Shown here piece after piece: positions 56,771 to 61,180 of a stretch of DNA of 64,000 nt. This DNA comes from Candidatus Saccharimonadota bacterium. Its GTDB lineage: Bacteria > Patescibacteriota > Saccharimonadia > Saccharimonadales > Saccharimonadaceae. The stretch spans positions 71,099 through 135,098 of the forward strand of contig JAFWHC010000001.1 in assembly GCA_017512095.1 (NCBI GenBank), read 5' to 3'. A program made the translations under genes and the position numbers. The notes below the pieces were generated by a model. That model ran no database searches. It saw only the letters and a program-made list of their open reading frames with translations, and was not told the DNA's origin. Numbering within the stretch: the first letter of the stretch is position 1; every line of letters starts with the position of its first letter.

Positions 56771-57129
56771 GGGGCTGACAAAGCTTAGACGAATTATTAA
56801 CAGATATCAAGCGTTACGATTGAACACCGTAAGTGTTAAATAAGTGCTGAAAACACTGTTGCAAGGCGTGTTGCTTACATGCCTGCTTATGCCTAATTTA
56901 ATTTTATAGGCTGGTCTATTCTCAAGATTCCGTAGAGGATAGATTATCATACGACGGGATTAAGGGTTTCTTAGTGACGAGAGAAACTTCGAAAAAAATA
57001 GTCAAGGCAGCTTAGAGTTTCGTTTCTTGCCGCTCTAAACGAGATGCCGAGACAAAACAGGAAACTATGAACGTAGAATGATATCCAGTGGTTTTTCGGA
57101 CCCGGAGGCAGTATCCGGCAGCTCCACCA
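56771..57129 (+). ncRNA. ssrA: tmRNA (one-piece); tag (A)AENTVARRVAYMPAYA* at 56846-56896
   Basis: GGGGCUG/CAGCUCC-A-CCA acceptor with G3.U; resume context AUAAGU-GCU; T-arm CCGGA-GGCAGUA-UCCGG. Confidence 0.95.
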
Positions 57130-57180: not shown

Positions 57181-57202
57181 GTGCGTTCGGAGATAAAGTC
57201 AA

Positions 57203-57313
57203 AGAAAAAGACCGGTAACTGCGAGGAAAACCGGTCTTTTTGTGTAGAGTGTGGAGTTATTTTTGGCTAAAATGTTTGTTTTTGGCTTTGAATAATTATT
57301 TTATTCAAAAGCT
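57203..57313 (-). ncRNA. Candidate ~110 nt small RNA
   Basis: TTGACA(57343-48)-17-TATACT(57320-25) on minus strand; 5' hairpin; A/C-rich middle; terminator 57205-57241; no ORF. Confidence 0.6.
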
Positions 57314-57516
57314 AATACCAGTATAGCGCGCAAAAACGCTTGTGTCAACACTTTTTTGCATAAATTTTTTATGAATTTTGATGAGTTTTCCACAAGTGAA
57401 GAACAGAGAAGAGCGTAATTTGGTGTAAAAAATACAACACGTTTGTTTAACACATTTAACAGGGGAAAAGTAGGCTTTTGTTGTAAAAAATAATTTAAAA
57501 ATGTTGAACAAAAATA

Positions 57517-57545
57517 TTGCATTTTTGTGTCGATCGTGCTAGAAT
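57517..57545 (+). promoter_or_regulatory. Strong sigma70 promoter with no associated ORF
   Basis: TTGCAT-17-TAGAAT plus TG extension and AT-rich UP-like tract upstream. Confidence 0.75.
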
Positions 57546-57549
57546 GTAA

Positions 57550-57880
57550 GAGTCGAAAGACAAAATAAACACTAAAAACAAAAAGAGAAAAAATGAAGTA
57601 TAAATAAGGAATAAGCTGGCGGTGCGAATAGGCAATTTCTAGCCATAAATTACATATAGGAATTGCCTTAAGCTTCGCCAGTTTGAGTGAAGCGCTGTTC
57701 GAGGACTTTTCGTTAGTACCTTAAAACAATATAGAACGAAAGGGAATCAACAAGGACATGCTCCACAATTGTGGAGCGGTCAAGCGGCTAGAGCGAGGAA
57801 CAAGGTTGCGGCCAATAGTAAGTTTTAATGCCGGATAACCTCCCTCGCTTTGGTCCAAAGGAGAATAAAATTACGACTTG
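57550..57880 (+). ncRNA. Candidate ~330 nt structured RNA of unknown family
   Basis: At least seven helices visible by eye downstream of the strong promoter (see findings). Confidence 0.6.
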
Positions 57881-57938
57881 GGGGTAAAAAGCAAGCACGC
57901 GATGTACACTTAAACATAAGTGTGATAAAATATAGTAT

Positions 57939-58289
57939 ATGCGTGGCAGAATAGTTCTCGTCTTAAGTATCTTTTCGCTTTTTGGGATACTAGCTATGCT
58001 TAACTATACGACGCCGAAAGATGCTGGTGTCTTAGGTGTTTTAGTATTTTTTACAATGATTTTCACGGTTCTCTTTGGCTTGATGTCGGAGATAGTGAAA
58101 ATTTTTCAGAGGATACTAAAAGACAAAAAGGGGGGAGAGATTTCTGAAAATAAGACGTACATGTATGCTACGGTGCTGGCATTTGGGCCAATTATTTTGC
58201 TGGTGACGCGTTCGATAAGTTTGGCTACGCTTGCGATGACAGTCATTTTTGTGAGCTTGGGTTGTTTTTTAATACACAAAAGAGCGTAA
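57939..58289 (+). CDS. Hypothetical membrane protein (4 TM)
   Basis: 116 aa hydrophobic ORF with leaderless-type promoter. Confidence 0.75.
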   Translation: MRGRIVLVLSIFSLFGILAMLNYTTPKDAGVLGVLVFFTMIFTVLFGLMSEIVKIFQRILKDKKGGEISENKTYMYATVLAFGPIILLVTRSISLATLAMTVIFVSLGCFLIHKRA

Positions 58290-58307
58290 GCGTGATAAAA
58301 TAAGCAT

Positions 58308-58514
58308 ATGTATAATGAGTTTGAGGATGCACTAGCGAGAGACAACACTTCACTTAAAAAAGAGATGGGTGAAGAAGGTTTGAGGGAAATACGTAAAATT
58401 GAAAAAGAGTTTGCGGACGATCCGTACATGTTAAATGTGAAGATTCAAGACATGAGCGACACGTTAATTTTGAAGGCTTTTGGACGCGTGCGGGAGGGGA
58501 GTGAAGTAAAATGA
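58308..58514 (+). CDS. Small hypothetical protein (68 aa)
   Basis: Leaderless-type promoter; ATGA overlap with next gene. Confidence 0.6.
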   Translation: MYNEFEDALARDNTSLKKEMGEEGLREIRKIEKEFADDPYMLNVKIQDMSDTLILKAFGRVREGSEVK

Positions 58515-61180
58515 GTGAGCCGGTTCTGTTCTTAATTTTGGGCGGAGTAGCACTCCTGTTTGTGTTAATTTTACTACGCGCGGGGAGAGTGAAACGGATG
58601 CGCGAGGTGAAGGAGGCAGAGCGAGGACTCAAGATGATTGCAATGCTGATTCATTTACCGCCAACGACTTCGGATATCCAAGGTGGTGGGAGAGACGAAC
58701 GAGATGTGGTGAATGAAGCGGTGAGTCAGGCGCAAGTGATGTATTCGATGATTGCGTCGACGTTGGTGAAGGGGAAAGCAGCGAAGATATTTGGACAGAA
58801 GCATATTTCGTTTGAGATTGTGGCGACGGGCGGCGTGATTAAGTATTTTGCTGTGGTGCCGGCCGTGTTAACAGAAACGGTGAAGCAGGCGGTGATTTCT
58901 GCGTATCCGACGGCAAGACTGGAAGAGACAGAGAGGGAGAATATTTTCTCGAAGACGGCTAAACTTTCCGGGGTGGCAGGCGGAGAACTCGAACTTAAGA
59001 AAGAATATGTCTATCCGATTGCTACGTACGAGGAAACGAAGAGAGACGCCAGCGTAGCGCTGTTAAATACGATGGCGTCAGTGAAGGATGGTGAAGGAGT
59101 GGGGGTGCAAATAATGTTTAGGCCAAAGGACAATGAGTGGACAAAAAATGCGGAGACTTGGGTAAAAAATGTAAAAGAAGGGAATAAAAAATCGATTAAG
59201 GTCGGGGGCTCGAACAATTTTCTTAGCGACTTTGTACAAATATTTAGGTTGCTTTGGAAGCCGCTCGATGCGCACGAAAATGCAGAAAAGCGCGAGGAAG
59301 TGAGAGTCTTGACGAATATTGAACAACAGGAAATTGGTGCGGTTGAGGAGAAAACGAAGTATGCGGCGTTTGAAACTTTGGTTAGAATTGTAGCGAGCAG
59401 CGACCAGGGAAAGGCTCGAGCTGAGGCGTTGGCGGGCGGGGTGGTGACGGCATTTTCGCAGTTTGATTCGCCTATTTATAATGGTTTTAAATACGAAATT
59501 GCAAAAGATGTGAAAAAGCTAGCAAGGGATTATATTTTTAGAGATTTTCCTTTGACGGAATGTAATAATATTTTGAACAGTGTTGAGCTTGCGAGTATAT
59601 TCCATTTGCCGGAGCAGAACGCAATTCCGACGAGTCAAGTGATGAGGCAACTGACGAAGCAGGTGGAGGGGCCGGCGAGATTGGTAGAAAATGGTGTATT
59701 AATTGGCGTGAATGAGTTTCGGGGCGAGAAGAAGGAGATACGACTATCACAAGAAGATCGAAGGAGGCATACTTATGTCATCGGCTCGACCGGAATGGGT
59801 AAGTCGAAGTTTTTGCGCAATATTGCGTATCAGGATATGCTAGAGGGGAGAGGGTTCGCCTTTATTGACCCGCATGGTGATGTGGCAGAGGAGCTACTTT
59901 CAATGGTGCCAAAAGAGAGAATTGATGATGTGATTTATTTTGATCCAGGAGATATGGAAAACCCGATTGGAATGAATATGTTTGAGTTTCAGACGCCGGA
60001 TCAAAAGGATTTCATTATTCAAGAGGGGATTAATATGCTTTATTCGCTGTACGACCCTGGACATACGGGGATTTTTGGTCCGAGAGGTGAGCATATGTTT
60101 AGAAATGCGGCGCTGCTTTTGATGTCTGATCCGAATGGGGCTTCGTTCATTGATATTCCGAGAGTGTTCATCGACCCGGAGTTTGTAAAAGCGAAGTTGC
60201 CATATGTAACAGATAGGCAAGTGTATGATTATTGGACAAAGGAATTTCCGGCATCACAGAAGAGTAATGACGCGGGGGAAGTAACGACGTGGTTTGTGTC
60301 GAAATGGGGGCCGTTTATTTCGAATACGATGATGAAAAATGTCTTAGGGCAGACAAAAAGCGGGTTTAATATTCGCGAGGTGATGGATAATAATAAGATA
60401 CTTTTGGTGAACTTATCTAAGGGTAAGATGGGGGAACTTAATTCGAAGCTACTCGGGATGATATTTGTGATGAAATTTCAGGCGGCGGCGATGAGTAGAG
60501 TGGACACGCCAGAAGATAAGCGAAAAGATTTCTGTTTGTTTGTTGACGAGTTCCAGAATTTTTCGACGGATAGTTTTGAGAGTATTCTGTCGGAAGCGAG
60601 GAAATTTAGGCTCAATCTTATTGTGGCGAACCAATTTATGACGCAGTTGACTGACAAAATCCGCGAAGGCGTGCTTGGGAACGTTGGTACGATTATTGCG
60701 GGTCGGCTTGGCGTGACAGATGCTGAGTTGATTGAGAAAGTGTTTGCACCGACGTTTACGGCAGAAGATTTACACAAGACGCCGAACTATCATGCGGTGG
60801 CAACGGTGATGATGTATGGAATGCCGAGTACGCCGTTTACGATGACGTGGCCCGTGCTAGGAAAGGAAAATCCGGAAGTTTTGAAGAGCTTAAAGACGTA
60901 TTCGGCGGCGAAGTATGGGCGGCCGCGAGCGGAAGTGTCACGAGAAATTGACCGGAGGCTTGCCGCAAGCAATAAAGGTGGGGTGGAAGATAAGACGAAG
61001 ACAGCAGAAACGGAAACAAAGCGAGTCTACAAAGTGCCTGGGAAGGAAGAACGAGAGGAGAATTTCTTAGAGGCGTGGATGAGAAAGAAAAGTGAGCTTG
61101 AAAAGGATATGAAGCCGGCGGAGAAGCCGCAAGAAGATGGTTTTTGGCGAGCGGACGACAGGATAAGCATAAGGTCTTGA
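58511..61180 (+). CDS. VirD4/TraG/HerA-like (DUF87) membrane-anchored ATPase
   Basis: N-terminal TM, RRRHTYVIGSTGMGKS, FIDPHGD, FVDEFQNF, LSEARKFRLNLIVANQF. Confidence 0.87.
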   Translation: MSEPVLFLILGGVALLFVLILLRAGRVKRMREVKEAERGLKMIAMLIHLPPTTSDIQGGGRDERDVVNEAVSQAQVMYSMIASTLVKGKAAKIFGQKHISFEIVATGGVIKYFAVVPAVLTETVKQAVISAYPTARLEETERENIFSKTAKLSGVAGGELELKKEYVYPIATYEETKRDASVALLNTMASVKDGEGVGVQIMFRPKDNEWTKNAETWVKNVKEGNKKSIKVGGSNNFLSDFVQIFRLLWKPLDAHENAEKREEVRVLTNIEQQEIGAVEEKTKYAAFETLVRIVASSDQGKARAEALAGGVVTAFSQFDSPIYNGFKYEIAKDVKKLARDYIFRDFPLTECNNILNSVELASIFHLPEQNAIPTSQVMRQLTKQVEGPARLVENGVLIGVNEFRGEKKEIRLSQEDRRRHTYVIGSTGMGKSKFLRNIAYQDMLEGRGFAFIDPHGDVAEELLSMVPKERIDDVIYFDPGDMENPIGMNMFEFQTPDQKDFIIQEGINMLYSLYDPGHTGIFGPRGEHMFRNAALLLMSDPNGASFIDIPRVFIDPEFVKAKLPYVTDRQVYDYWTKEFPASQKSNDAGEVTTWFVSKWGPFISNTMMKNVLGQTKSGFNIREVMDNNKILLVNLSKGKMGELNSKLLGMIFVMKFQAAAMSRVDTPEDKRKDFCLFVDEFQNFSTDSFESILSEARKFRLNLIVANQFMTQLTDKIREGVLGNVGTIIAGRLGVTDAELIEKVFAPTFTAEDLHKTPNYHAVATVMMYGMPSTPFTMTWPVLGKENPEVLKSLKTYSAAKYGRPRAEVSREIDRRLAASNKGGVEDKTKTAETETKRVYKVPGKEEREENFLEAWMRKKSELEKDMKPAEKPQEDGFWRADDRISIRS

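Follow-up and report, generated by a model that had tools for sequence, protein, structure and literature searches.

The window analysed here, a stretch of 64,000 nucleotides from a Candidatus Saccharimonadota bacterium, was found in searches with Rfam 15 to contain an RNase P RNA, a tmRNA (56771-57129) and five tRNAs. Judged from comparative analysis, the interval from 57551 to about 57856 on the plus strand is also a real gene, which encodes a folded non-coding RNA of an uncatalogued family. This RNA is located between comM and a cluster consisting of a small-membrane-protein gene and a VirD4-like ATPase gene. The features in and around the gene are the following:

57480-57496, no strand assigned: remnant of a 17-bp palindrome, GTTGTA-N5-TACAAC, intact in most relatives and degenerate in the window
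57517-57545, plus strand: promoter as read from the sequence, with -35 TTGCAT (57517-22), 17-nt spacer, -10 TAGAAT (57540-45) and TG at 57537-38
57552-57561, plus strand: 5' hairpin GUC-GAAA-GAC, AGUC-GAGAU-GACU in relatives, also present in the short form of genome G344
57562-57592, plus strand: single-stranded, A/C-rich linker with a weak Shine-Dalgarno sequence at its end, AAGAG (in relatives AAAGGA)
57593-57607, plus strand: mini-ORF MKYK*, read from the sequence
57616-57681, plus strand: domain 1, with P1 (57616-25/57672-81, containing a GA-rich internal loop) and P2 (57630-41/57657-68)
57639-57653, plus strand: 15-mer CUAGCCAUAAAUUAC complementary to infA, formed by the loop (57642-56) plus the top of P2
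57686-57696, plus strand: junction with a conserved GAGCGC-type motif, AAGCGC in the window; optional hairpins are inserted just 5' of it in relatives
57697-57751, plus strand: P3 domain, with P3 (57706-14/57735-43) and the loop motif UAGUAC/UAGCAC (57714-19)
57755-57783, plus strand: P4 hairpin, with outer GAC/GUC pairs and stem 57759-66/57771-78, followed by an invariant GGUCAA junction
57786-57855, plus strand: long P5-P6-P7 hairpin (P5 57786-98/57843-55, P6 57803-08/57836-41, P7 57809-12/57830-33), with AAUAGU loop and GGAU bulge
57876-57931, plus strand: promoter region of the next gene, TTGGGG-17-TATAAT in relatives; the scan of the window gives TGTACA-17-TAAAAT with TG (57903-31)
57939-58289, plus strand: leaderless gene for a 116-aa membrane protein, adjoining the RNA
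3' of the 116-aa gene: 68-aa ORF, then a VirD4/TrwB-like ATPase gene (58511-61180)

An earlier note on this DNA had described the extended promoter TTGCAT-17-TAGAAT, which is present in the sequence as claimed and from which transcription is predicted to start at about 57551. The pattern TGnTAnnnT was found at an identical offset in 28 of 30 homologues of the RNA locus, so the promoter is conserved, but its ranking as one of the strongest in the window was not borne out: a consensus promoter scan of the window does not list the site (57517-57545), because its -35 hexamer matches just three of six positions. The same scan lists the promoter of the next gene and one on the minus strand (57348-57320). 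The latter is a near-consensus TTGACA-17-TATACT within minus-strand positions 57198-57348, facing a hairpin with a U-tract at 57241-57205; together these elements, lying between the tmRNA gene and the RNA, are a candidate for an sRNA of about 110 nt. The 17-bp palindrome some 60 bp before the predicted RNA start is probably a transcription-factor site. The perfect palindrome GTTGTAAWWWTTACAAC has eight occurrences in the 625-kb genome G000, with copies on contigs C1, C3, C5 and C6 (e.g. C5:59433), and is likely to be the operator of a regulator.

As the earlier note had stated, no ORF stands behind the promoter: the ORF list shows none that is credible between it and the ATG at 57939. For the interval 57550-57880, cmscan against Rfam 15 returned no family at gathering score and none inside the interval at E<=10, in agreement with the reported absence of a T-box or a familiar riboswitch motif, and 20 order-level homologous loci gave no family at E<=0.01. 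The suggestion of a possibly undescribed Saccharibacteria ncRNA is thus upheld by the missing Rfam match, by strong covariation and by the single copy found in 132 of 301 genomes of the order. On this comparative evidence the RNA family is widespread in Saccharibacteria and absent from the catalogues. According to a 2022 preprint on the TM7x transcriptome, no small RNAs have been validated in Saccharibacteria (10.1101/2022.03.25.485537).

Conserved fold of the RNA

The plus strand of the interval folds at -102 kcal/mol (z = -6.4), which was equalled by none of 100 shuffles, versus z = -2.6 for the minus strand. RNAalifold applied to 23 full-length copies from the genus Candidatus Nanosyncoccus predicted 61 pairs, 31 of them with compensatory changes, and placed variable optional hairpins at fixed insertion sites. 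Across about 70 distinct copies from this genus, compensatory changes back every main helix. For P1 and P2, 96.7% of cells are paired and 14 of 21 pairs are changed on both sides (70 distinct sequences), compared to 33-57% paired in slid controls; P4, P6 and P7 likewise reach 96.7%, 12 of their 18 pairs having changed on both sides (about 70 distinct genus sequences), and seven of the nine core pairs of P3 have one to eight sequences changed on both sides (alignment A1). P5 is present in 69 of 69 distinct sequences, with a median of 11 bp and 68 different strand pairs. At the level of the order the core is 98.3% paired, and both sides have changed in 12 of its 18 pairs.

Most of the helices drawn from the single sequence in the earlier note reappear in the alignments of homologues, in which pairing is conserved and covaries. 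Covariation confirms 57613-21/57676-84 as P1, in the register 57616-25/57672-81, and 57630-41/57657-68 as P2; the helix 57706-14/57735-43 corresponds to the covarying P3 and the palindrome at 57760-77 to the covarying P4 (57759-78). The helix 57790-98/57843-51 is P5, extended to 57786-98/57843-55 and kept in all 69 sequences, 57803-08/57836-41 and 57809-12/57830-33 are P6 and P7, both of which covary, and the 5' hairpin GUC-GAAA-GAC is conserved in relatives as AGUC-GAGAU-GACU. The two closures proposed there have to be abandoned. Pairing of GGAC 57754-57 with GUCC 57853-56 is not conserved, and in relatives GAC 57755-57 pairs with GUC 57779-81 instead; GAGUCG/CGACUU is not conserved either, the conserved CTTGGGGG (57876-83) lying outside the RNA and being, in relatives, the -35 element of the next promoter. 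CUUGGGGG was also considered as an RNA element and rejected, as it is not conserved.

The strand can be fixed as plus because conserved U-G pairs, among them an invariant one in domain 1, fit the plus strand only, and because the reverse strand scores much weaker with the covariance models. The earlier note had read the G-U pairs as a sign of RNA-level selection. Several unpaired elements are conserved beyond the genus: GCGGUCA at the P4 junction is invariant throughout the order, the P3 loop motif UAGUAC/UAGCAC is retained in sister genera, and tracts resembling AAAACAAAAAC are found again close to the 5' end in homologues throughout the order. Together with P4, the P5-P7 hairpin is, from these alignments, the hallmark core of the RNA family.

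Distribution and genomic setting

Within Candidatus Nanosyncoccus, represented by genomes from gut and rumen samples, BLAST identified a single copy in 31 of 37 genomes at 68-77% identity, and the six genomes that gave no match have completeness values of 59-82%. Two models were searched across the order. R2, built on domain 1, matched three of three genus genomes and none of 298 others, whereas R3, broader and built on the 3' core, gave exactly one match in each of 132 of 301 genomes, which represent 101 of 217 genera; its score for the window is 89.8 bits (E = 3.9e-27). Diverged copies of the RNA, with the elements in the same order, were found at the tmRNA-flank loci of sister genera. In other families the RNA occurs in a short form of about 170-200 nt: after the promoter come a 5' hairpin accompanied by an A/C-rich tract, then P4, GGUCAGUCA and P5-P7, and often a U-tract at the end. 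One genus member, G344, carries a short RNA without domain 1, which was found by R3 and missed by a single-sequence nhmmer probe (first 20 kb, contigs C1-C5 of G344, G378, G390 and G409). No intrinsic terminator is visible after the RNA in Candidatus Nanosyncoccus.

Two kinds of insertion were observed. In some genus members, at loci L023, L027, L028 (and L139), domain 1 and P3 are separated by about 300-700 nt of inserted purine-rich sequence with no Rfam match, and loci L024, L030, L151 and L190 have an extra hairpin of about 40 nt in the P2 loop.

A VirD4/TrwB-like ATPase gene lies about 1 kb downstream in 29 of 30 loci and comM upstream in 22 of 30, and the order comM, RNA, VirD4-like gene is seen in the window too. 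Throughout Saccharimonadales the order and orientation of the RNA, the membrane-protein gene and the VirD4-like gene are kept. The earlier note had placed the RNA downstream of ssrA, which holds for this family (f1) and a few others but not elsewhere in the order. Even where tmRNA adjoins the RNA the orientation of ssrA flips, and at loci L009, L012, L013 and L017 the tmRNA gene is inverted relative to the window yet still adjacent. As a meaningful neighbour it was rejected, since elsewhere the RNA stays with comM and VirD4 while the tmRNA gene is far off. On the homologous loci ARAGORN found no tmRNA, whereas Rfam did detect it.

Concerning the genes downstream, the claim that the next CDS has its own promoter agrees with the scan, which lists TGTACA-17-TAAAAT (57903-31), and with the conserved -35 and -10 elements in relatives. 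At 57926-57941 and again at 58273-58310, a TG-extended -10 is followed by an ATG 7 nt later, i.e., both genes are leaderless. No Pfam family matched the 116-aa membrane protein.

A hairpin loop complementary to the start of infA

Most Candidatus Nanosyncoccus genomes add a 5' module to the core, consisting of a Shine-Dalgarno-led mini-ORF and the P1/P2 hairpin. The P2 loop CUAGCCAUAAAUUACA was invariant in 30 of 30 copies found by BLAST, and its 16-mer is invariant in about 70 distinct sequences; the stems around it vary with compensation, while the loop never varies. The extra hairpin of L024, L030, L151 and L190 sits just 3' of the invariant 16-mer and leaves it untouched.

The 15-mer CUAGCCAUAAAUUAC is the perfect complement (15 of 15 nt) of GUAAUUUAUGGCUAG at G000:C3:85955-85969 on the minus strand, that is, of the first 15 nt of the near-leaderless infA mRNA, start codon included. 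infA encodes IF1 and heads infA-rpmJ-rpsM. Apart from the RNA gene itself, the sole other near-copy of the loop in the genome is this site on contig C3, where the complement GUAAUUUAUGGCUAG runs across the infA start; the idea that the loop copies an rRNA or tRNA was therefore rejected, as the genome contains no further copy. In the genome, no other trans complementarity to any part of the RNA is as long as the infA match. Other trans targets were rejected, as their matches of 11-14 nt are at chance level and fall in non-conserved or paired regions. For the 15-mer the chance expectation is 0.0005-0.0014 matches per genome. Twelve of its 15 nt are unpaired (P>=0.89), and the energy of the duplex is -19.9 kcal/mol. 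Among 151 genus genomes the 15-mer occurs exactly twice in 101, three times in six, once in 28 and not at all in 16, versus one match of a control pattern across all 151.

The target is conserved as strictly as the loop. In 22 infA genes of the genus, 18 consecutive nucleotides are invariant, starting 6 nt after the -10 box, at the predicted +1; the 6 nt 5' of this block vary, and 12% of third codon positions are invariant. Across the order the infA leader is 7-10 nt long, U/A-rich and without a Shine-Dalgarno sequence, and the start motif (U)GUAAYUU-AUG-GC recurs. The leader is also invariant in three species of the sister genus g27, in whose RNA domain 1 varies, the 15-nt target is 14/15 identical in g26, and G344 keeps 14 of 15 nt though its RNA lacks domain 1. 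These comparisons show that the infA leader is conserved independently of the loop, for it persists where no loop exists. The RNAs of sister genera and other families are complementary to their own infA over no more than 7-8 nt. Antisense action on infA cannot be the ancestral role of the family, because those lineages carry the RNA without such a loop, and the comparative picture is that of a genus-level addition aimed at an already fixed target. Wherever the loop exists, neither it nor the target varies, which leaves no room for intermolecular covariation. The 5' strand of P2, GGUAAUUU, repeats the infA leader, which suggests a possible origin of the 5' module by inverted duplication of the infA start, with the match then being due to descent. 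Such an origin would not explain why the loop is invariant amid covarying stems, which still calls for selection.

The mini-ORF of the module, four codons long in the window (MKYK*, 57593-607) as the earlier note had it, is preceded by a Shine-Dalgarno sequence and begins with AUG in about 51 of 59 genus copies according to a crude parser. Its length ranges from four to about 13 codons, the peptides are Lys/Arg-rich without being conserved in sequence, and the stop lies 0-9 nt 5' of P1 in most copies. At the G344 locus L277 (G344:C4, 17170-17190, minus strand) it is reduced to a start and a stop, AGGAG-N8-AUG-UAG, and no mini-ORF was found in sister genera. Selection could thus act on ribosome occupancy and not on the peptide.

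Competing explanations and proposed mode of action

Our preferred reading, to which we assign about an even chance, is that of an independently transcribed single-copy RNA whose Nanosyncoccus version also acts in trans on infA. According to this proposal, the ancestral part is the 3' core, made up of P4, the junction GGUCA and the AAUAGU- and GGAU-bearing P5-P7 hairpin, which we infer to be a binding or stability scaffold that also terminates the transcript. The P1/P2 hairpin would present the invariant loop, predicted to form 15 perfect base pairs with infA mRNA from nt +1 to +15, covering the AUG. Antisense control in trans would be the likeliest action: pairing with the 5' end of infA mRNA would hide the 5'-terminal start codon or alter 5'-end-dependent decay, and the output of IF1 would thereby be tied to the level of the RNA. 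Ribosomes on the mini-ORF, whose stop lies so close to P1, may protect the 5' end of the RNA, or they may melt P1/P2 and so gate the loop.

A rather doubtful, though possible, alternative by analogy with OLE RNA and OapA is that the RNA is a ribonucleoprotein component or partner of the 116-aa membrane protein and the VirD4-like ATPase, the infA match being incidental or secondary. The conserved order and orientation of these genes throughout the order would fit such a partnership, as would the invariant unpaired core motifs GCGGUCAGUCA, AAUAGU and GGAU, which are typical of protein or tertiary contacts, and the existence of the core without the anti-infA loop in most lineages. Synteny alone is nevertheless no proof of interaction, the membrane protein has no Pfam family, and the partnership leaves unexplained both the invariance of a 16-nt loop in about 70 distinct sequences and the exact match to infA. 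The earlier note also proposed a long cis-regulatory leader, which here would be a riboswitch-like element or attenuator of the membrane-protein/VirD4-like operon, read through from the upstream promoter. The RNA is always directly upstream of the same genes and co-oriented with them, no U-tract terminator is present in the genus, and a mini-ORF ending at the foot of P1 recalls leader-peptide attenuation. A separate gene is more likely, because each of the next genes starts leaderless behind an extended -10 promoter of its own and because a U-tract follows the last hairpin elsewhere. The next gene has a conserved promoter with both -35 and -10 elements, its AUG standing 7 nt after the -10; in a transcript read through from upstream this start codon, which has no Shine-Dalgarno sequence, would be buried. 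In other families the RNA ends with the last hairpin and U-tract, no alternative terminator/antiterminator pairing covaries, and sister genera are without the mini-ORF. Instead of an expression platform overlapping a downstream terminator or ribosome-binding site, the downstream gene offers its own promoter and leaderless AUG. We consider a cis-acting leader quite improbable.

Two further explanations concern the identity of the shared 15-mer and of the RNA itself. It is very unlikely that the 15-mer is a DNA-level site, for example an operator for one protein at both loci, with the hairpin irrelevant; as double-stranded DNA it would occupy a classic repressor position at infA (+1 to +15) and recur inside the RNA gene, but it is not palindromic, it lies about 90 nt inside the transcribed region of the RNA gene as a hairpin loop, and the stems of that hairpin covary and contain conserved G-U pairs, which indicates selection on RNA. 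The least probable identity, with hardly any chance of being correct, is a very divergent housekeeping RNA such as SRP RNA or 6S RNA. No SRP RNA is detectable anywhere in the genome, yet the SRP models (RF00169, RF01854) found nothing at E<=1 on genome G000, the present RNA included, and with SRP54-type GTPases (Ffh, FtsY) missing there is no partner protein; SRP RNA was therefore rejected, RNA models and partner proteins both being absent. 6S RNA (RF00013) was rejected likewise: no Rfam family, 6S included, reached E<=10 in the region, and the RNA has a multi-domain fold of several independent hairpin domains, not a rod with a central bubble. OLE RNA (RF01071) was discarded as an identity, as its model gave no match and the gene neighbourhood alone is analogous.

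The missing SRP components extend beyond the window. No ORF with GxGKT/DTxGR (Ffh/FtsY) motifs was present in G000, the small-SRP model matched none of 61 order genomes with controls detected normally, and 30 of 31 genomes had no SRP54 GTPase domain above the cut-off, the single match being on a small contig of a 76%-complete genome. The single paper located in which FtsY is named together with Saccharibacteria concerns host genes. These searches suggest that the whole order may lack the SRP pathway.

Returning to trans action on infA as the preferred reading, the closest parallels are found among trans-encoded antisense RNAs whose hairpin loop binds a translation start, such as the OxyS-fhlA kissing complex, plasmid CopA/CopT and Sok/hok. 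Like them, the Nanosyncoccus RNA has a promoter to itself and a stable hairpin whose conserved unpaired loop complements the region around the start codon of a distant mRNA. However, the RNA described here has more than 300 nt and a large conserved core unrelated to pairing, its target is the extreme 5' end of a near-leaderless translation-factor mRNA, and the pairing is predicted, with no chaperone known. Dual-function sRNAs with a small ORF (SgrS/SgrT, RNAIII/hld, SR1/SR1P) also combine a structured RNA, putatively regulatory in the present case, with a Shine-Dalgarno-led ORF, but here the peptide is not conserved and ranges from one to about 13 codons. Ribosome occupancy is therefore probably what matters, not the product, and the mini-ORF would more nearly resemble a leader peptide or a stabiliser that binds ribosomes at the 5' end.

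As a lineage-wide, single-copy and intricately folded RNA with its gene beside a small-membrane-protein gene, the family resembles OLE RNA/OapA, raiA, ROOL and GOLLD. It does not match them in sequence or structure, is smaller (core of about 120 nt), and belongs to a different phylum, where the adjacent genes are type-IV-coupling-protein-like. Feedback control of translation genes is known from E. coli, in which S4 acts on the rpsM leader of the alpha operon and infC is controlled through its AUU start. In both cases, as would be the case here, the output of a translation-factor or ribosomal-protein operon is set at initiation. The E. coli systems employ a protein or factor acting on its own mRNA, whereas in Candidatus Nanosyncoccus a separate RNA would act.

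The match to infA, the occurrence throughout the order and the VirD4-like neighbours had been missed in the earlier note. They define a conserved RNA gene that roughly half of the order's sampled genera carry, beside genes of a type-IV-secretion-like apparatus, and the covariance models and alignments (A5, A6, A9) provide the basis for an Rfam-type family. They also lead to a specific hypothesis that can be tested by mutation, namely that the loop at 57639-57653 pairs with infA +1 to +15, which bears on RNA control of translation initiation in an organism that relies on leaderless mRNAs. A more far-reaching and speculative view, which we regard as unlikely, is that the core RNA works with the type-IV coupling-protein cluster needed for epibiotic life, and that the Nanosyncoccus form is a translation-capacity sensor in which ribosomes terminating on the mini-ORF gate the loop that clamps the 5' end of infA mRNA. 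If this sensor reading were true, no earlier case would exist of an RNA that sets the amount of a translation initiation factor, nor of an sRNA mechanism directed at a leaderless start.
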